Virus record (IMG/VR): IMGVR_UViG_3300037485_000776
Span: 1-37,457 of that record
Source of the DNA: a virus
DNA: 37,457 nt
Strand: one strand, 5' to 3'
A program made the position numbers and the translations under genes. Shown piece by piece: positions 14,961-37,436 of the stretch. The notes under the pieces are model-generated. The model saw only the letters and a list, made by a program, of their open reading frames with translations. It did not search any database and was not told the origin of the DNA. The number at the start of each line of letters is the position of its first letter. Position 1 is the first letter of the stretch.

Positions 14961-15298
14961 GGGACTATGCTCACTCTTACCGCGCCATTCGCAACCATAG
15001 GCGTACCGTTTGAATATGTCGCCAGCGCTCCGGTAGATACGCACAAAGCGCCATCATTGGCTCTAGGAAGACCGTTAGACCACACCACATCAACAGGAAG
15101 CCCAGCAGTCGCATCAAAGTATCGAATCTGTCCTGCGTCTGTCATTAAAAGACCGTTAGCGTACTCATCACCACCTGTAGCAATAGCCCTGTTCAAATCT
15201 CCAGATAAAAGCACACCGTTCTGGAATGTGTCTGTCGGCTGAATAGCGCCAGTTCCTAATTGCACTACTTCGGTAGCTGATACTGTAAATATAGACAT
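14957..15298 (-). CDS. Hypothetical protein between TerL and portal (113 aa)
   Basis: Track ORF. Its start abuts the TerL stop (TAATG at 15298) and its stop overlaps the portal start. G/A/T/V-rich. Confidence 0.55.
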   Translation of the reverse strand: MSIFTVSATEVVQLGTGAIQPTDTFQNGVLLSGDLNRAIATGGDEYANGLLMTDAGQIRYFDATAGLPVDVVWSNGLPRANDGALCVSTGALATYSNGTPMVANGAVRVSIVP

Positions 15299-16659
15299 TA
15301 GTATCTTTCCTGTCGGCGTTTAACGTCTTGCCATAATTCATCTAGAGGTGCTGTAATTATGACACCGTTTTGTGCTTTTATGTTGAATTTTGCGGGTTTT
15401 TCGGGTTCTTTTGGTGTTAATTCCTGCATTATTTGAGCGCCGTAGGCAAAAGCATCCGCTGGATGGCTTGCCCAATTATGCAATGGTTCACGGCTAAAAA
15501 CCCCTAAATCTTCATTGTATGCGTACTCCCATGCTATCAACCCATCCATTCCAGCCTCGCACAATTCAGAGTTAAATTTGCATTTTGGAAGTACGGCGCG
15601 TGCTGCGCTGATCTGGTCTAGTTTTTTGGATTGAGGCACGATAGCGCATTTGTCAGTGCCGAAAGCTTGGGCAAATCGTTCGATTGTCGTGTGCTTGCTT
15701 TGAAAAGTCTTGGCTCGCGCATCATGAGGAAGCCACACACGTCCTAGCTTTCGGCCTGCACCGAGTTCAATAATCTTGTCACGGATTCGTGGTATCCAGT
15801 CGTCCGCATCCAAACCCGTATCGCCATCGTATGCCAGCACGCGAAAGCCTCCAAGTGTGCGCTGCCAATACCAGAAAGAAGCGGTATCCCTAAAACCAAG
15901 GTCACACGAAACCTCAATTCCTGCCCCGTCCGGGTCAAAATTTACATCGGGTGTTGCCCTTCCTTCTCGAATGGCTTGATTAACCCACCGAGCCAGAATC
16001 GCGCCCTGCGTTGCGCCATAAGCACCATTCCATATATGTTCGGCCTTATCTGGGTCTCGCTCAAAATCGTCAATCATTTCTTGACGAAGTTCATTAGGAA
16101 ACCAAGGATTATCGTTCCAGTTCACCGCTACAACAATGGCGTTATCTGGTTTCTTTTTCCTAAAAAACACATCCACTGGGTCGCTTTTGAATCTTGGGTT
16201 CCAGCTAAAAAGCATTTCAGAACCCGGCATTCGTATAGTTGGGCGTAACAAATCCAGGCTGTATTGGCTCAATGTTTGGGCTTCTTCGACCCAAGCGCGT
16301 TTATAACCTTCCAACGACTTTATCGAATCGGCTGTATGGTTTTGCATACCTTGGAAAGTGATAACACCAGCCCCGCGACGGCTGCGAATGGCCTTATCCA
16401 ACACCTCAAAATAATCACCAGCATTAAGTTTGACGATTTTTTGCTCTAGCAAACGCTTAACTGATTGCTCTATAGACTTTTGAATTTCACGTATGCAAAC
16501 TGTTGCATCATCCGGGTTAAGTATATGTTCTTCAATGATGTACTCACCGAAAAAGTGAGATTTTCCAGACCCCCTGCCACCCCATGCACCTTTGTATCTA
16601 GCTGGCTGCAATAATGAAACAGCCCACCGTGGCGTAGGAATATCAAGAACTGCGGTCAT
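15298..16659 (-). CDS. terL: Terminase large subunit
   Basis: 453 aa with Walker A GGRGSGKS near the N-terminus. The size and the position upstream of the portal gene fit. Overlaps the TerS-like gene by 17 nt. Confidence 0.9.
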   Translation of the reverse strand: MTAVLDIPTPRWAVSLLQPARYKGAWGGRGSGKSHFFGEYIIEEHILNPDDATVCIREIQKSIEQSVKRLLEQKIVKLNAGDYFEVLDKAIRSRRGAGVITFQGMQNHTADSIKSLEGYKRAWVEEAQTLSQYSLDLLRPTIRMPGSEMLFSWNPRFKSDPVDVFFRKKKPDNAIVVAVNWNDNPWFPNELRQEMIDDFERDPDKAEHIWNGAYGATQGAILARWVNQAIREGRATPDVNFDPDGAGIEVSCDLGFRDTASFWYWQRTLGGFRVLAYDGDTGLDADDWIPRIRDKIIELGAGRKLGRVWLPHDARAKTFQSKHTTIERFAQAFGTDKCAIVPQSKKLDQISAARAVLPKCKFNSELCEAGMDGLIAWEYAYNEDLGVFSREPLHNWASHPADAFAYGAQIMQELTPKEPEKPAKFNIKAQNGVIITAPLDELWQDVKRRQERY

Positions 16660-16996
16660 TCTTTGGGTCTACGATTGTTCTGCGTGTCTCTTGCACTTGA
16701 ACCGGACCGCCTTCAGCCCCGACAAGCTCAGTCCTTGCCAACTTGGGCGCGGCAAACTCAGCCAGCTTTGCGAGATTGTCCAACGCTTTCGCCGGGTCTG
16801 GCTTTATATCGTACTCTGGCATACCCTCGGCCACCTGTTTGAGCCACTTGGCAACGTTATCAGCATTGCCCTCCAACAGCTTGTTGATGGTTTCCCTGAA
16901 TTCCCTTGTGGCTTTGTTCGGTGTCCCGGCAGTTCTTCCTCCGGTCTTTGGTGTTCCTTTAGGCCGACCAAAGCCGGATTTCGGCTTAGTAGTCAT
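16643..16996 (-). CDS. terS: Putative terminase small subunit (117 aa)
   Basis: Basic N-terminus (KPKSGFGRPKGTPKTGGRTAGTPNK) and helical remainder. It is the first gene after the late promoter and lies immediately upstream of terL. Confidence 0.6.
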   Translation of the reverse strand: MTTKPKSGFGRPKGTPKTGGRTAGTPNKATREFRETINKLLEGNADNVAKWLKQVAEGMPEYDIKPDPAKALDNLAKLAEFAAPKLARTELVGAEGGPVQVQETRRTIVDPKNDRSS

Positions 16997-17026
16997 AATC
17001 TATCCATTTTTTACTATAGATAGATT
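16997..17026 (-). promoter_or_regulatory. Perfect 8-bp inverted repeat (AATCTATC / GATAGATT) between the late -10 box and the terS ATG: operator-like palindrome
   Basis: 16997-17004 pairs perfectly with 17019-17026. It begins 2 nt from the -10 box and ends at the start codon. terS has no SD. Confidence 0.5.
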
Positions 17027-17027
17027 T

Positions 17028-17055
17028 ATTCTACACAATTGCATTATTTTGGCAA
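17028..17055 (-). promoter_or_regulatory. Sigma70-like promoter for the late (structural) operon
   Basis: Minus-sense TTGCCA-16 nt-TAGAAT, preceded by the TTGTG shared with the other promoters. Confidence 0.55.
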
Positions 17056-17279
17056 CACTTATAAATAACGCGCATTAGTCTGCGCTTTGCTGTTTTTGGC
17101 TCCCACCAACCTGCATTTTTTGATTTCCCGCTGAAAACAATACTTTCCTGTTCGGTAAATGGTCTTAATACAAGTTCATGGTTTCCGTGCCTAGCCCGGT
17201 AATAGAATGGAACTCCGTTTATATGCCCTTCAAATTGATTAGGCATTTGTTCGCAGGTCATTTTTACGCTTATTTTCAT
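17031..17279 (-). CDS. Hypothetical protein, paralog B of a tandem pair (82 aa)
   Basis: ATG 17279 forms an ATGA overlap with the upstream paralog. The two share FEGHINGVPFYYRA(R/K)HGNHE(L/I)VLRPFTEQESIVFSG.SKNAGWW. Confidence 0.6.
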   Translation of the reverse strand: MKISVKMTCEQMPNQFEGHINGVPFYYRARHGNHELVLRPFTEQESIVFSGKSKNAGWWEPKTAKRRLMRVIYKCCQNNAIV

Positions 17280-18271: not shown

Positions 18272-18337
18272 TGTAATCTCCTAATTTTTATATATCAAAA
18301 TATAAAGCTGTATAAGTTGGGGCTTATTACCCCGGAT

Positions 18338-18423
18338 GTCCGTAGCCCTATTCGTCAATAGGGTTCACCTGTAAATTCAGGCCATACGCTTTGCAGGCTA
18401 CTTTCGTAGCTCCTGTGCCGGAC
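18338..18423. ncRNA. Structured intergenic element: four-way-junction (cloverleaf-like) fold, unclassified
   Basis: Closing helix 18338-42/18419-23 encloses three hairpins: CCCTATT-cgtc-AATAGGG (18346-18363), ACCTG/CAGG(C) (18367-82) and GCTAC-tttc-GTAGC (18397-18410). A further GGGG-cttatta-CCCC hairpin lies at 18319-18333. No ORF in the region. Confidence 0.4.
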
Positions 18424-18444
18424 TGTTCACTAATACGATTATCT

Positions 18445-18630
18445 TTAATCTTTTTCCATGCCCAATAAATTTTTTATAGCCCACGTCCACTTTCCTGTTT
18501 TCAGTTTTGACAGAACAAACATGGTTAAAAGTGCGGCAACAGTTGCGTATAAAATACCAATTGCCATCATTCCGTTAAGTATGAAAAATACCCATGTTAG
18601 CCAATAAACAATCGGAATTGCTAAAAACAT
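18445..18630 (-). CDS. Small 2-TM membrane protein (61 aa)
   Basis: Two hydrophobic helices and a basic tail. Strong SD AAGGAGAG 5 nt upstream. Flanked on both sides by structured non-coding sequence. Confidence 0.6.
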   Translation of the reverse strand: MFLAIPIVYWLTWVFFILNGMMAIGILYATVAALLTMFVLSKLKTGKWTWAIKNLLGMEKD

Positions 18631-18656
18631 AATTCTCTCCTTAGTGAGTTGTTAAT

Positions 18657-19109
18657 CCCCGTCTTTCCGGGGTGTCATCTAGGTGCTGCATTTAGAACTG
18701 CCTAGCCAATTCGAGCAAACGAAAGCAGCGTCCGTTTTGTTAGCGGCGGGTGCTGATCTCCCGCATGTCTGCATTGCAAAGTCAGGTACGGGTCATCAAC
18801 CTAGCAGACAGAAGACTCTTTGACACCGTTTTTGCGTATCAGCCTACGCATTCACTAACAAGTCTAGGGTCTGCTCGCATAAAGCAGCGGATAAGAAGAA
18901 AGGATCAAACCGAAACAACGGCGCTAACCCGTTGCCAGACCCTAGACTTTTTAGCACTAACATTGAAGCGTGCCGGTGCTGAACTCCGGCTTGCCGATTT
19001 TCCCCGCATCGGTCGCATCGCGTGTACTTCCCGCCATGTTTCGCGGTTTTCTGGTCGCTCGCATCAGCCTGCGCATTCCGCTTCAATGTTAGTCCCCGTA
19101 CTTTCCGGA
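18657..19109. ncRNA. Large structured non-coding element (about 450 nt), unclassified; strand undetermined
   Basis: Perfect long-range helices at 18860-73/18936-49 (14 bp) and 18956-70/19079-93 (15 bp), at least eight further hairpins, and three paralogous hairpins with loop TGCTGA(T/A)CT. No SD-led ORF. Confidence 0.55.
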
Positions 19110-19110
19110 T

Positions 19111-19263
19111 TCAGTGCTTATTTTCCCTCATTTTTGCTATCTTATCCAACATTTCCCGCTTTTCCATTAAAGCTTTTGCTTTCTTTTCTGCTTCCGCTTT
19201 ACTCATTCCCGCGTCGTATTGAAGTATTGCTGCGCGTTCTTCAAATGCTTCGCGGTCAGTCAT
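19111..19263 (-). CDS. Hypothetical small protein (50 aa), MTDREAFEERAAILQYDAGMSKAEAE motif
   Basis: Below the track cutoff; hand-translated codon by codon. ATGA overlap with the upstream gene and a TGA stop at 19111. Confidence 0.6.
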   Translation of the reverse strand: MTDREAFEERAAILQYDAGMSKAEAEKKAKALMEKREMLDKIAKMRENKH

Positions 19264-19613
19264 TTTGTTTCCTTTAGTTTTTCTTCAAGTTTTGAGGCAA
19301 ATGTGTTCCAGTCACCCCCAAGTACGTCCATACCCGCTGAATGCCATGCTTCATATACTGCGTCAAAGAATAACCCTTGCCATTCGCGTCGCTCCTGCTC
19401 TGGCGGGGCGGTGTAGAGTCGTTGGTCAGTTTTGTCAGTCATTTCATTCTCTGTCAGCCCTTGCCATTCGCGCTCTGGCTGCGCTAGTCGTTCGCGTAGG
19501 TCATTAAAAGCGTGGTACTGAAGATAGCGCCACTCGGCTTTTGTCATGTCGTTTTTGCTATCCAACGCCACCATCGCTTGATACATTATTTCTCGGTCAG
19601 TTTTGTCAGTCAT
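19260..19613 (-). CDS. Hypothetical protein with internal duplication (117 aa)
   Basis: MTDKTD...REWQGL occurs twice. The 24-nt string GGTCAGTTTTGTCAGTCATTTCAT is present at 19425-48 and 19595-618, the latter spanning this gene's own start. Confidence 0.6.
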   Translation of the reverse strand: MTDKTDREIMYQAMVALDSKNDMTKAEWRYLQYHAFNDLRERLAQPEREWQGLTENEMTDKTDQRLYTAPPEQERREWQGLFFDAVYEAWHSAGMDVLGGDWNTFASKLEEKLKETK

Positions 19614-34183: not shown

Positions 34184-35647
34184 TTATAGCTCCGCAGTTA
34201 AAGACTCAATACGGTTAATTAACGTTGCATAACCAGTAGTTGTTGATTCTAAAGAGCAACTAGCTGATGTTGTTGTTAAACCTAGAACTAACCCAGAGTA
34301 AGTCGTGTCCGGCGCTCTTACGTTGTTTGATGTTCCCGCTGTAACAACAGCTCTTGTCGGCGTGGCTCTCATTGCTACAGGAAACAAAGTTAGAGCGCTA
34401 ATTCGTTGATTAGCAACTAATGCGTATCCCGCAAGTTCCCCTATCGTATGCACTTGGTAATACCGCTGACACAGCGCCAACTCTACACCTAGAGGCGTGT
34501 AGTCATAAGCAGTAGCAAACGCCCCCGGTTCCAATTTTAGCCGCCCAATAGTCCATGTTCCGCTAGTTTGTGCCCCAACACTTAATTCGACTTCTATTCC
34601 AGTTGTTGCCGCCGCTGGAACGCTAATTTGGGCGCTGTATCTTGTTAAGGTTCCGGTAACGGTAAATGTTCCAGTTCCTATTTGTGTTCGCGTGGGTGAG
34701 GCTAATGTACCAAACGTATTATTAGTATTTGCACGCCAAGCCGTCCAAGTAACTGTCGTCAATAAACTATTAGCCAAGTCAACCGATAAAGTCGCCGTAG
34801 TTCCCGCCAAATCTTGAGAATTTGCGGCTTCAATCCTTTGGGCAAAACCAATTTTTGTAACGCTGGCTGCGCCTGTAAATTGGTAATTAAACTGATTAGG
34901 CGCGGTTCCAGCAACCTGCTGACCTGTTACGTTAGCGCCAGTACAGTATCCGTAGAACCTGTCAATACAATACGCTAACGCTGCGCCAGCCGTGAAAGTT
35001 TGAGCCGCGCCAGAATTGCGTTGGTCAATCGCCATTGCGCCATTTATGATCTTATTTCTAAATCCAGCAAATTGCGTGCCATTAAGTGAAACTGCATTTA
35101 TACCGCCATCTGCCCTTTGATACCCTAATACTCGCCACCCGTTAGCAGGCGTTCCATTTGGTACTACAATTGCACTATCACCCGCAGCCGTGGTTATGTT
35201 TGCTCCACCGGGTAGTATCAAAGTAGTCGCGTTGTGGGTAAGGGTCAGTGCTCCGTCAAATCTAAGGTAACGTGGGCCGTTGTAGTTTGTCCCGAAACTT
35301 GTAATTGTCGTCGTTCCGGTAATGTTGAGCAATACCGTGTTTTGTGCGCCAATGTCCGTAGTGGCGGCACTTGCCAAGTTAGCGGGTTGTCCTTGGCTGA
35401 AAAGCTGTTCCCACCGTAGTGAATCACCCGTTCCAGACCCCGCCGCCAGTCCGGTTATTTTGTTGTTTCCAGCGTTCAGGTTTCCCGTTATTGGCGTTTG
35501 ACCGTCTGCACTCAAAGACTGGTTAAGTGCTGCGGCTACGTCATTGATTAGGTTTTGCCAGTCTACCGCTGTAGCAGAAACACCGTTAGTTGCCGGGTTC
35601 CAGCTATTTGTGAGTAGGTTATAGGTTCCACTGCCGTTACGTGCCAT
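34184..35647 (-). CDS. Tail fibre protein (487 aa)
   Basis: The N-terminus MARNGSGTYNLLTNSWNPATNGVSATAVDWQNLINDVAAALNQSLSADGQTPITGNLNAGNNKITGLAAG is the common conserved tail-fibre N-terminal module. The remainder is T/G/A-rich and beta-like. Confidence 0.7.
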   Translation of the reverse strand: MARNGSGTYNLLTNSWNPATNGVSATAVDWQNLINDVAAALNQSLSADGQTPITGNLNAGNNKITGLAAGSGTGDSLRWEQLFSQGQPANLASAATTDIGAQNTVLLNITGTTTITSFGTNYNGPRYLRFDGALTLTHNATTLILPGGANITTAAGDSAIVVPNGTPANGWRVLGYQRADGGINAVSLNGTQFAGFRNKIINGAMAIDQRNSGAAQTFTAGAALAYCIDRFYGYCTGANVTGQQVAGTAPNQFNYQFTGAASVTKIGFAQRIEAANSQDLAGTTATLSVDLANSLLTTVTWTAWRANTNNTFGTLASPTRTQIGTGTFTVTGTLTRYSAQISVPAAATTGIEVELSVGAQTSGTWTIGRLKLEPGAFATAYDYTPLGVELALCQRYYQVHTIGELAGYALVANQRISALTLFPVAMRATPTRAVVTAGTSNNVRAPDTTYSGLVLGLTTTSASCSLESTTTGYATLINRIESLTAEL

Positions 35648-35750
35648 CTTGCTTTCCTTTACAATACGCCTATGGATTTTATTGACTTTTTAATCATCAA
35701 GCTCATTTTCTTTGCCATTTGCGCTTTCATATATCAGTTTTGGCGTTCAT

Positions 35751-37436
35751 TTACTGGGCGGCAATAACGGGTGCGCTTAATTGACCAGCGCGTAAAAGGT
35801 CAATTAGTAATTGATTCGGAATATTGCCTGAACTTGGCGCTATTTGATTAGCAAGTGCATTTTGTGCGCCTTTTCTGAACATTAAAGACCTAGAAGCCGC
35901 TCCGGTAGCATAAGGAAGCGCCGCCAATGCAAGCCCCGGTACTCCAGCACCAAGGCCGCCAACAGTTCCAAGACCAATAGAACCCATAGCCCTGAGATTA
36001 TGCGCCGCAGGGCTTCCCATTTGTTGACCAGCTTGGTTTATAGAAGGAAAAGCACTTGCAAATCTTCCAACTGTTTCAAGTTCTCCAGATAAGGGTTTTC
36101 CTTTTTCGTAAATTCTGCCAAGTACCCTAGCGTTTACTGTACCCGTTGCCTCATTCAAAGCTCGTTCTACAGTGTAAGTTTTCGCAATTTGTTTTCTTGC
36201 TTCTCTAAGCGCCGGGATTAAATCTTCTTTGCCAGCTTGAGCAGCATAATTTTCAAGGTTATTTTCTAATGTATTAGCCATATCCCTGAAGTTTTTGGCT
36301 TTTAGCAAATCATCAGGGCTTGCCGATCTATTGTAAGCATTGAACCAGCCTTGAGCATCATTTCTGGCCTGTTTCAATAACTCTAAGTCAATTTTAGCTT
36401 GGTCGGATATAGACGCAACTTCTGCATACGCTTTTCCGGCTGTTGATCGTAGTTTTTCTAGCGTTCCTTTTGTTAAAGGCATATCATCAGGCAAACCCAA
36501 AGCGCTACGTGTTAATTTTTCCGTTATATCTTGATTTTTTACCGAAGCCAATTGTGATGTGGCTTGTTTTCCAGAAAAAGATTCAATTAGTGCATTTTTT
36601 GTTGATGGGTTTACTAAGTTAGGAGGAACAACATAACCAGCATCTATTGCAGCTTTTACAGTTTCACGCATTGGCAATTCACGTTCAAATTTTGCCAATT
36701 TTTCAGCATTTTTTGCGGCAGCTTTCTGCCCCAAATAAGAACCAGCCGCCCCTGTTGCCCTACTAACCACCGGAATAGCAGCACTAATAACCCCCGCCGT
36801 TCCCGCATCTTCGGGGTTAATCATTCCCCCCGCCAGTGCGCCAGTTGTTCCTGCCGCTCCTGCCCTCAAAGCTAAATTAGCGGCTTTTGCTCCAGTAGTA
36901 ACAGGGGCAGCACCAGTTGTCATGCCTGACGTTCTTAATGCGTTTATTAGAGCGGGAGCGCGTGAAGCCACACCGGGTATCATTCCAAGACCTTTGGCAA
37001 GCGCACTACCAGCGCCAGCGGTTCCCGCTATTTCAGTGCCTATTTTCCCGACTTGGAAAGCCGCTGATTCCGGGTCTGCGCCCATTGATCGCAAACCTTC
37101 TTCTATTGCTTGTCTGCGTTCAGGGTTTCCAATAGATTGAGTATTTCCCGCTAGCAAATCATAAGGGGTCAGCAATGTAGCGCCAATTGAGCCAGCACCA
37201 CGAACCGCCCCCGCCGCAAGGTTTGCTTTTTCAGCTACAGAACGTCGAGCATAATCAGCAACACCTTTGCCTAGTCTTTGTAATAGGCTAGGTTCTTGGG
37301 TTGCTTGTGGTGTTTGTGGAGCTTGTGGCGTTTGATTCCTTGCGGCTTTATAAGCAGCAGCAACAGTTTCAAACTCAGGCGTACCTTGTTTGTCCTGATT
37401 TTCGACTATCCACTGAGCGTATTTTTCTGCGCTCAT
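35751..37436 (-). CDS. Putative internal virion / ejection protein (561 aa)
   Basis: Track ORF. Its start overlaps the stop of the 499-aa gene across the circular junction. G/A-rich hydrophobic segments and a TPQ(A/T) microrepeat near the N-terminus. Confidence 0.55.
   Translation of the reverse strand: MSAEKYAQWIVENQDKQGTPEFETVAAAYKAARNQTPQAPQTPQATQEPSLLQRLGKGVADYARRSVAEKANLAAGAVRGAGSIGATLLTPYDLLAGNTQSIGNPERRQAIEEGLRSMGADPESAAFQVGKIGTEIAGTAGAGSALAKGLGMIPGVASRAPALINALRTSGMTTGAAPVTTGAKAANLALRAGAAGTTGALAGGMINPEDAGTAGVISAAIPVVSRATGAAGSYLGQKAAAKNAEKLAKFERELPMRETVKAAIDAGYVVPPNLVNPSTKNALIESFSGKQATSQLASVKNQDITEKLTRSALGLPDDMPLTKGTLEKLRSTAGKAYAEVASISDQAKIDLELLKQARNDAQGWFNAYNRSASPDDLLKAKNFRDMANTLENNLENYAAQAGKEDLIPALREARKQIAKTYTVERALNEATGTVNARVLGRIYEKGKPLSGELETVGRFASAFPSINQAGQQMGSPAAHNLRAMGSIGLGTVGGLGAGVPGLALAALPYATGAASRSLMFRKGAQNALANQIAPSSGNIPNQLLIDLLRAGQLSAPVIAAQ

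Follow-up and report, generated by a model that had tools for sequence, protein, structure and literature searches.

A tandem array of minus-strand RNA modules at the early-to-late junction of a podovirus-like phage includes two members of a large tRNA-shaped RNA family

Results

An untranslated gap between the early and late genes

The DNA analysed here, called the window, is the whole 37,457 nt of the IMG/VR virus record IMGVR_UViG_3300037485_000776, and the feature under study is a gap between two of its genes at positions 18631-19110. The chain of open reading frames (ORFs) of at least 100 aa lies wholly on the minus strand of the window. Upstream of the gap in the direction of transcription are an ERF gene, a DUF1376 gene and many small ORFs. 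Downstream are the gene for a 61 aa protein (p61), a putative lipoprotein gene (called from its N-terminus by inspection), small ORFs, the gene for the terminase large subunit (TerL, 15298-16659) and the genes for the portal, major head, amidase and structural proteins. The all-minus gene chain and this layout of early and late genes identify the gap as the untranslated junction between the early and the late (lysis-like, packaging and structural) genes of a ~37 kb podovirus-like phage and make the minus strand the relevant one. The gap is a tandem array of independently folding minus-strand RNA modules in the order H-B-A-C(+tail)-H', and two of these, modules B and C, are members of a large family of tRNA-shaped RNAs of phages and prophages. 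The features of the region are given below in order of transcription, where P1 is the closing stem of a family member, P2 and P3 are the two hairpins inside it and H is a small G/C hairpin.

19111-19263, minus strand: p50, the conserved last gene of the early region; the array always begins at its stop codon
19093-19109, minus strand: H-a, a degenerate H copy (UCCG-GAAAGUA-CGGG) that begins right after the p50 stop codon
18956-19093, minus strand: module B, family copy 1, with P1 19079-19093/18956-18970 (15 bp), linker GAAU 19075-19078, P2 19060-19074 (loop GGCUGA), insert 18991-19059 and P3 18972-18990 (loop AGUUCAGCA)
18855-18954, minus strand: module A, 100 nt and outside the family, with a 19 bp closing stem (one mismatch) around a 7 bp hairpin, a pyrimidine-rich single strand and a small hairpin
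18737-18861, minus strand: module C, family copy 2, with P1 18853-18861/18737-18745 (9 bp including one U·G), P2 18834-18849 (GCGUA-GGCUGA-UACGC), insert 18765-18833 and P3 18746-18764 (GCGGG-AGAUCAGCA-CCCGC)
18678-18736, minus strand: tail of module C, with the hairpin CUAGG...CCUAG at 18679-18705
18656-18677, minus strand: H-b (H'), the canonical H plus flanks, UGACA-CCCCG-GAAAGA-CGGGG-A
18631-18655, minus strand: leader and Shine-Dalgarno sequence AAGGAGAG (18635-18642) of the first downstream gene
18445-18630, minus strand: p61, 61 aa, with two hydrophobic segments and a charged C-terminus by eye; holin-like by inspection only
18272-18444, minus strand: module F, a 173 nt conserved non-coding multi-hairpin stretch between p61 and the lipoprotein gene

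A preliminary description of the locus had proposed a single 480 nt multi-domain structured RNA or single-stranded DNA element containing two perfect long-range helices. Both helices, 18860-18873/18936-18949 (14 bp) and 18956-18970/19079-19093 (15 bp), were recovered exactly, and a scan of the 37,457 nt for perfect inverted repeats (12 bp or longer, loops of at most 150 nt) gave no others. The chance expectation for a perfect 14-mer inverted repeat is, roughly, 0.02 per window. The 14 bp helix extends to 19 bp with one mismatch (18855-18873/18936-18954). The octamer reported before each helix, CACTAACA, is real, and its minus-strand form, UGUUAGUG, makes the outer pairs of the closing stems. 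The 480 nt folded more stably than dinucleotide shuffles on both strands (z=-2.7 minus, z=-3.1 plus), supporting the claim of strong structure, and the gap indeed contains no ORF led by a Shine-Dalgarno sequence. The 80 aa (minus) and 175 aa (plus) ORFs considered earlier had no Pfam match and cross junctions that are found only in the window and are absent from the sister contigs L001, L004-L010, L022 and L085, so they cannot be conserved genes. The gap is thus non-coding as first described, and it is more than a simple terminator. It could be assigned to no known RNA family either, as cmscan with Rfam 15, which includes GOLLD, ROOL, C4, Proteo-phage-1 and the self-cleaving ribozymes, gave 0 matches at the gathering threshold in the whole window. 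The only sub-threshold match near the gap was to Hairpin ribozyme on the plus strand (17.5 bits, E=1.8).

The picture of one RNA with two equivalent junction domains did not hold. The gap can be divided into five or more separable modules (H, B, A, C plus tail, and H'), and of the two domains only 18956-19093, module B, belongs to a recurrent family. The first domain, 18855-18954 or module A, is a different hairpin-like element that had no match to the family covariance model R1 introduced below; its support is folding energy (z=-5.4) and conservation (92-97% in 13 related contigs, with uninformative variation). The second family copy, 18737-18861 or module C, sits among what had been listed as upstream hairpins. 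Several of the hairpins described as nested in or upstream of the two helices were found again as parts of separate modules: 18972-76/18986-90 is P3 of module B, 18746-64 and 18833-50 are P3 and P2 of module C, 18679-18705 is the tail hairpin and 18657-72 is the H' hairpin. The minus strand as the RNA strand, the relation of B to C, P2 of module B (19060-19074) and the pairing between loops had no counterpart in the preliminary description.

Direct repeats 225-226 nt apart (18746/18972 and 18835/19060) and 437 nt apart (18650/19087) indicated that the gap is internally duplicated (~225 nt). The stems of B and C differ by compensated changes (P2 GCGCA/UGCG in B and GCGUA/UACGC in C; P3 GCCGG/CCGGC in B and GCGGG/CCCGC in C), and the comparison indicates that the two modules are paralogues. 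Module B folded alone gave z=-4.7 against shuffles. The tail hairpin has a compensatory variant, CUAAG/CUUAG, in L005, L007 and L010, and the tail always accompanies C and H'. The sister phages carry a canonical counterpart of H-a, CCCCGGAAAG(N)ACGGGGA.

Modules B and C belong to a family with a kissing-loop architecture

Nucleotide searches with the gap against phage, plasmid and E. coli collections gave no match. Relatives were therefore reached with the flanking proteins (TerL and the upstream 117 aa protein) against IMG/VR and then with a pattern for the motif. The P2 search pattern AATGCGYAGGCTGATRCG matched more than 120 unrelated viral contigs at the least, all with one architecture. 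A closing stem P1 of at least 7 bp is followed by a 3-4 nt linker, (G)AAU, and a 5 bp hairpin P2 with the loop GGCUGA; a hypervariable insert of 27-367 nt then leads to a 5 bp hairpin P3 with the loop AGAUCAGCA, the 3' strand of which runs into P1. The loops of P2 and P3 pair with each other in a Watson-Crick kiss of 5-6 bp. We built a covariance model, R1, from 58 unrelated copies, none of them from this phage group, and it matched module C at 18737-18861 (minus, 72 bits, E=7.2e-19) and module B at 18963-19086 (minus, 63.4 bits, E=2.2e-16). Both modules have every feature of the family: P1 of at least 7 bp, (G)AAU, GGCUGA, (A)UCAGC(A) and P3 next to P1, with one spacer nt (A) between P3 and P1 in module B. 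The kiss is 6 bp in C (GCUGAU/AUCAGC) and 5 bp in B (GCUGA/UCAGC). In relatives retrieved through TerL, R1 matched 20 further sites, all on the TerL strand, and as the motif lies upstream of TerL even in phages with 60-75% TerL identity its position is syntenic. R1 also gave a weak third match in the window at 16967-17091 (minus, 14.8 bits, E=0.024), with a GCGCAGACUAAUGCGC hairpin, between an 87 aa ORF and a TerS-like gene; this may be a decayed family copy.

The pairing was assessed in 109 distinct copies. Most family statistics come from copies found with the fixed P2 pattern, which overstates the conservation of P2. P1 pairs 1-7 comprised 738 Watson-Crick, 19 G·U, 3 A·C and 3 other pairs with 80 different P1 sequences, and in P3 G·U pairs were present and A·C pairs were not. 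That G·U so outnumbers A·C in the transcribed strand indicates that the fold is that of the RNA of the coding strand. P1 length had a sharp floor at 7 bp (40 copies with 7 bp, 35 with 8 bp and 33 with 9 bp), and P3 met P1 with zero spacer in 104 of the 109 copies. The alignment of the 58 unrelated copies (A1) showed 3-5 pair types at each of the seven P1 pairs with unpaired cells near zero, and four of the five P3 pairs covaried; the observed values were reached by 0 of 500 shuffles and slid controls were far off. A second alignment (A2), of 16 distinct sequences retrieved through TerL and hence free of bias from the P2 pattern, is small. Its four-helix structure was 99.7% paired, with double changes in 14 of 22 pairs. 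Three of the five kiss pairs in A2 were changed on both sides with 98.8% of cells paired, and L038 (GGCUGA/AUCAGU) and its near-identical sister L035 (GGCCGA/AUCGGU) differ by a compensated change in the kiss; further variants were CGCCAA(U)/(A)UUGGC in L034 and GACUGA/AUCAGU in L057. Compensatory changes thus back all four helices of the predicted fold, the tertiary kiss included. The homologues of B and C vary at paired positions with compensation, and the covarying pairs together with the G·U excess favour the RNA side of the RNA or single-stranded DNA choice that the preliminary description had offered.

The 3' tail of the family is G-poor, with A (52%), C (46%) and C (46%) at its positions. 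One insert, in L117 (3650-3848, minus), contains a hammerhead-like CUGAUGAG...CGAAAC...GUC that matched HH9 with 28 bits and E=0.002, below the curated cut-off.

The family is widespread and enriched beside tRNA genes

The element is not private to this phage, and the core family is widespread across proteobacterial phages. The enterobacterial version was present in 852 of 5,426 complete E. coli genomes (~15%), and none of the RefSeq E. coli records listed had an annotated feature under the match. This version was also present in P1, mEp460 and Stx-converting phages, among 92 phage records in all. When one genome per species was scanned, at least 57 of the 120 matches listed had the full architecture and came from alpha-, beta-, gamma- and deltaproteobacteria; the other matches listed were chance matches inside coding genes, with ~70 expected by chance. 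E. coli, phage P1 and Pseudomonas-type copies had no Rfam match apart from a sub-threshold one to isrJ.

In phage P1 the motif is downstream of tRNA-Asn and tRNA-Thr, and this phage seems to carry a similar RNA array. Within 2430-2720 of the phage P1 record OP279344 (L232) a ~64 nt element resembling an acceptor stem plus T arm lies between tRNA-Thr and the motif. ACAACAGGTAAGGG junctions recur in phage P1, and an annotated 'plp'/hypothetical ORF is overlapped by the beginning of another module that resembles the P1 stem. In mEp460/e14-type prophages the motif is in a ~700 nt gap between a cI-like repressor and the yfdP operon. A strong terminator-like hairpin with a T-run follows the mEp460 motif by eye (~2664-2706), which the terminator scan did not call. 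In L157 (3205-3282, minus) a Proteo-phage-1 RNA (76.8 bits) lies ~120 nt upstream of a family member with an H-type hairpin, GAGGG-GAAAGA-CCCUC, between them, an arrangement in which different orphan phage RNAs cluster together.

A tRNA on the same strand was found within 300 nt of 15 of 144 copies, several only 5-20 nt downstream. The zone within 300 nt of the motif makes up ~7% of the sequence and holds 42% of the tRNAs, an enrichment of about six-fold that is mostly downstream. The protein genes downstream of the motif often start 16-60 nt after P1 and are mutually unrelated. Those in the cluster representatives look holin-like, RecT-like, LuxR-like and TerS-like by inspection, and no common downstream gene was found among these representatives. 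A general promoter-proximal position was not supported, as sigma-70-type promoters were found upstream of 3 of 143 copies, which is the control level.

These neighbourhoods bear on whether the motif could be a ligand-sensing, riboswitch-like junction that would control a downstream terminator or ribosome-binding site. The topology resembles the purine riboswitch aptamer, and a terminator or ribosome-binding site often follows the motif. However, the downstream genes have no common function, tandem copies occur inside tRNA arrays, the junction has few nucleotides and accepts an arbitrary insert of 27-367 nt at J2/3, and in the copies inspected (mEp460 and L116) the terminator stem and the 3' strand of P1 are separate by eye, leaving no apparent switching helix. 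We give this explanation hardly any credence.

Sister phages shuffle the modules as cassettes that begin after an H hairpin

Nine contigs had pieces of the gap after the conserved 50 aa gene (p50), and the order and copy number of the pieces differed even where TerL was 99% identical. The orders on the coding strand were as follows.

Window: H-B-A-C-H'-p61-F
L001: D-H-A-C-H-E-G-F
L005 and L007: D-C1-H-A-C-H-[tRNA-like cloverleaf]-E-F
L022: H-A-C-H-B'-F
L085: D-C1'-H-B''-C-H-B'-F
L010 and L004: an ORF cassette in place of modules

The array was absent from the more distant relatives L023 and L024. A cassette begins after the small G/C hairpin H, behind which comes A(C/T)UAACA; its end is UGUUAGUGAA. 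The cloverleaf in the same array is 86-95 nt long (L005 2568-2653, L007 1328-1413, L083 7911-8005) and combines a 7 bp acceptor stem and a GUA 'anticodon' with a T-like loop, UGCAAAU, and its ACCA end is encoded; in L083 an extra hairpin replaces the anticodon loop. We considered the cloverleaf of L005 and L083 as a true tRNA-Tyr, but both ARAGORN and the Rfam tRNA model were negative and it is kept here as tRNA-like.

A search of viral contigs with the H pattern, CCCCGGAAAGN(1-2)CGGGGA, found the 22-mer consensus UGACA-CCCCG-GAAAGA-CGGGG-A in at least 119 unrelated IMG/VR contigs (for example L388, L380 and L397), with GACA preceding 89 of 122 copies. The stem covaries by eye around a constant GAAAGA loop (CUCCG/CGGAG, CCUCG/CGAGG, GAGGG/CCCUC). 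Of 83 distinct copies, 6 are followed at 1-6 nt by a tRNA; what comes after the others is a member of the family, a different small hairpin module, or a ribosome-binding site and start codon. Its spread and position make H a second widespread RNA element, a marker of either the start of a cassette or the end of the one before. H had no match in Rfam or in literature searches for the exact sequence. As a general reading, H as a sigma-70 promoter (TTGACA, the hairpin as a 17 nt spacer, and a -10) was rejected because tRNAs begin 1-6 nt after it and its stem covaries; where H directly abuts a tRNA there is no recognisable promoter. H as a CRISPR-repeat mimic (Racr-like), suggested by likeness to the type I-E repeat, was dropped as in many phages H is single and stands before tRNAs and ORFs.

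Shuffling of this kind could also point to a function at the DNA level, in which the CTAAC...GTTAG repeats and the H palindrome would serve as a recombination or cassette-boundary element (attC- or PeSL-like), an origin or a packaging site. The cassettes are bounded by A(C/T)TAACA at the 5' side and TGTTAGTGAA at the 3' side, they are exchanged between near-identical phages and they are positioned between genome modules. The integron attC consensus is RYYYAAC...GTTRRRY at the ends of imperfect palindromes of 57-141 bp, and modules A and B have an attC-like size (100 and 138 nt) and end in CTAA(C/A)A...TGTTAG with the terminal CTAAC/GTTAG. These CUAACA/UGUUAG ends, however, are the local version of a covarying RNA stem, P1, that has 80 sequences elsewhere. 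The 19 to 3 ratio of G·U to A·C on the transcribed strand and the covarying kiss, which is meaningless for duplex DNA, argue for RNA rather than a DNA element. The orientation is always that of the downstream gene, and no integrase family was found among the window proteins scanned, a scan that covered part of the ORFs. We regard a DNA-level function as very improbable, and the inverted repeats may act as recombination substrates as a by-product.

Genes and non-coding features around the array

The gene p61 behaves as a swappable cassette; among the relatives only the window and L083 have it, and the protein had no match in Pfam or PHROG. Module F folded with z=-3.1, and in the 17 related contigs that have it, at 86-98% identity, it is invariably the last element of the variable cassette region. 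At its end lies TTGATA-17-TACAAT (18298-18270, minus strand), which of all sites in the region looks most like a promoter. Pairs of adjacent paralogous small genes flank the array at 17031-17294/17276-17572 and 19610-19918/19915-20253. One pair has the common motif FEGHINGVPFYYRA.HGNHE.VLRPFTEQESIVFSG and both genes of the other pair match phrog_5086, which suggests local duplications around the array. Tail-fibre-like and structural genes are at both ends of the window (34184-37436 and 103-1602) with the early genes mid-window; this gene placement and the related contigs of ~37 kb point to a complete genome in circularly permuted form. The nearest cultured phages are Proteobacteria phages of ~37-41 kb with only ~40% TerL identity, including one named podovirus.

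Discussion

The tRNA-like geometry of the family and the presence of its modules in the slots after H that tRNAs also occupy lead us to favour tRNA mimicry. We propose, with a probability of roughly 0.4, that the modules are tRNA mimics aimed at the tRNA-processing machinery, giving punctuation of the transcript and release of stable RNAs. The array would be read through from the early genes within a polycistronic transcript, and the modules would fold co-transcriptionally into compact tRNA-shaped domains. Host tRNA-processing enzymes, RNase P first, would recognise the 12 bp stack that resembles acceptor and T stems together with the elbow. If cut at such 'punctuation marks', the transcript would fall into separate early and late mRNAs, the 5' end of the downstream message would be set, and the modules would be freed as stable small RNAs. 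The variable insert would be freely exchangeable cargo, and recombination between the H repeats and the CUAACA/UGUUAG stem ends would shuffle modules among sister phages.

Several observations weigh against tRNA mimicry. The family RNAs escape the tRNA detectors (ARAGORN and the Rfam tRNA models); in the window ARAGORN found 0 tRNA genes and the Rfam tRNA model (RF00005) had no match at E<=10 in 18300-19400. The NCCA tail is a tendency and not a rule, and the proposed recognition by RNase P is suggested by the geometry. In about 17% of members, module B with its 15 bp P1 among them, P1 is 13-27 bp long, and a duplex beyond position 7 is a poor substrate for RNase P and suits RNase III better. 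Within the array, module A and the tail lack covariation support; modules A, tail, F, D and E are restricted to this phage group and their variation is uninformative. Terminator-like sites were found within 120 nt downstream in 15.4% of copies and in 2-4% of control windows (~5-fold). Of 143 copies, 15 have a boxA-like sequence, [TC]GCTCTT[TA] (UGCUCUUU), always 12 nt ahead of the closing stem, where the background is 0.3%; it is confined to the enterobacterial subgroup (for example L233 2496-2510, L129, L175 and L196). The downstream terminators and the boxA-like site fit a role in transcription elongation at least equally well.

Such a role would be that of a cis-acting antitermination or anti-Rho leader, similar to HK022 put or to nut, in which the folded nascent module would stay on RNA polymerase, whether or not NusB/NusE sit on an upstream boxA, and carry it from the early to the late genes through terminators and untranslated stretches. 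Apart from the terminators and boxA, this is consistent with the mEp460/e14-type copies, which lie between the cI-like repressor and the early-left operon in a layout like PL-putL-tL1, following a likely operator/promoter region by inspection (the consensus promoter scan found none) and followed by the apparent strong intrinsic terminator that the terminator scan did not call. Pseudomonas-type copies are arranged as terminator, motif and terminator before a gene that is holin-like by inspection, the motif is often found at the start of tRNA arrays, untranslated and hence expected to be Rho-sensitive, and the array in the window precedes the late genes of a single-strand genome. Yet 85% of copies have no nearby terminator, upstream sigma-70-type promoters are at the control level, and the array in the window has no boxA by eye and no predicted terminator in or after it. 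There is no kinship in sequence or architecture with put RNA, a text-pattern search did not find the motif in the HK022 immunity region, and an arbitrary insert of 27-367 nt and tandem copies are unexpected for an RNA that docks on polymerase. We consider antitermination unlikely, though it is the foremost competitor of tRNA mimicry. Long P1 stems fit neither the processing nor the antitermination model neatly and may be RNase III sites.

Trans-acting stable RNAs are somewhat less likely again. The tRNA-like frame would here be a nuclease-resistant scaffold and the insert the active part, either as a base-pairing regulator or as a decoy or sponge for a host factor such as a tRNA-directed defence nuclease. 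The frame is conserved and the insert hypervariable, and inserts can hold other RNAs (the sub-cut-off hammerhead-like HH9 and, by inspection, T-arm-like hairpins). Fast change of copy number and content among the sister phages is as in an arms race, the sister arrays include the tRNA-like cloverleaf described above (GUA 'anticodon'), 15% of copies have a terminator of their own at the end, and the Pseudomonas-type copies have a sub-threshold likeness to the Hfq-binding isrJ (30 bits, cut-off 37). Against this, most copies lack a promoter and a terminator of their own, none of the results points to a defence system, and no target complementarity was found, none having been looked for. This explanation also overlaps with tRNA mimicry, which includes the release of stable RNAs.

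More broadly, and tentatively, the possibly new class of tRNA-shaped RNA and the GAAAGA hairpin could serve phages of Proteobacteria as RNA-only signals to a core host machine, either RNase P, for a punctuation like that in mitochondria, or RNA polymerase, for antitermination without a protein, with the insert as an exchangeable cargo slot and possibly a use as decoys against tRNA-directed immunity. If undescribed, the family would be among the more widespread orphan structured RNAs of phages, ranging over phage P1, Stx-converting and e14/mEp460-type prophages, 852 of 5,426 E. coli genomes, and alpha-, beta-, gamma- and deltaproteobacterial prophages. Full-text literature searches with the exact sequences of both motifs returned nothing, and a description elsewhere is possible. 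Its presence in E. coli phages with full genetics makes its function directly testable. The family could explain how early and late expression are separated or coupled in N-less lambdoid prophages and single-strand podoviruses, and it is a natural, insert-tolerant tRNA-like scaffold. A practical use is the annotation of the 700 nt 'empty' gaps beside prophage repressors and of the tRNA regions of many phages.

Comparison with known RNAs and elements

Among antitermination RNAs, HK022 put RNA is ~70 nt long and has two stem-loops with a triplex in a V shape, without a closing stem or a kiss (PMC9378689). We rejected membership of the same family on this difference in architecture and because the signature loops of the motif were absent from the HK022 immunity region in a text-pattern search made without a covariance model. 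The likeness to put and nut is one of place: family copies in N-less lambdoid prophages are likewise promoter-distal leaders before terminators, and the enterobacterial subgroup likewise has a boxA-like sequence upstream, as in lambda nut. For the window itself, no GCTCTT core of the lambda nut boxA (CGCTCTTA / TGCTCTTT) was seen upstream of B or C by eye, no pattern search having been made, and no arginine-rich N-like gene was among the ORFs neighbouring the array. The H hairpin is similar to lambda boxB, with a 5 bp G/C stem and a GAAA-rich loop.

The purine riboswitch aptamer consists of a P1 and two hairpins with a loop-loop kiss. The family has the same P1 and two kissing hairpins, but it lacks a conserved ligand pocket, has a huge variable insert in J2/3 and has no evident expression platform in the copies inspected. 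HDV-like, theta, hammerhead, twister and other ribozymes gave no fit when threaded by eye, in agreement with the negative Rfam result. GOLLD, ROOL and Proteo-phage-1 are likewise phage-borne orphan structured RNAs, often beside tRNAs; the family modules are far smaller (~80-200 nt) and in arrays, and those models do not match the window. The match to isrJ (RF01393), an Hfq-binding small RNA of a Salmonella island, covers P3, the 3' strand of P1 and the terminator, at most half of the motif, rests mainly on the terminator and a CA-rich spacer, and has no counterpart in the window. The anti-small-RNAs AgvB and AsxR are 51-60 nt RNAs downstream of PR' and hence not this motif, and the Pas small RNA is not relevant to it.

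T4 RNAs C and D (species 1 and 2), the c4 RNA of phage P1 and the CI RNA of P4 are stable non-tRNA RNAs from phage tRNA or leader transcripts. They are small and structured, are co-transcribed with tRNAs or operon leaders and are freed by tRNA-processing enzymes. The Rfam C4 model does not match the motif, and the family is far more widespread than any of them. In T4-type phages, the cassettes shuffled between related phages are flanked by repeated stem-loops (PeSLs), which resembles the arrangement found here.

The closest likeness is to tRNA and tRNA-like structures (viral TLS, mascRNA, the YrlA tRNA-like domain and tmRNA), with which the family shares the order of helices around the junction. 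P1 takes the place of the acceptor stem (7 bp) and P3, 5 bp long and stacked on P1, that of the T arm; P2 stands for the D arm, the kiss for the D-loop/T-loop elbow and the insert for the anticodon and variable arms. The family also has a linker of 2-3 nt before the first hairpin, an A/C-rich 3' tail and a place inside phage tRNA arrays. It differs in that its elbow is a 5-6 bp Watson-Crick kiss and not a D-loop/T-loop contact, in having no T-loop or D-loop consensus, in having an arbitrary insert for the anticodon arm and in a P1 that is sometimes 13-27 bp. In the 'tRNA punctuation' of mitochondria, structured RNA units form the boundaries in polycistronic transcripts; the family units would do so as tRNA mimics rather than as tRNAs.

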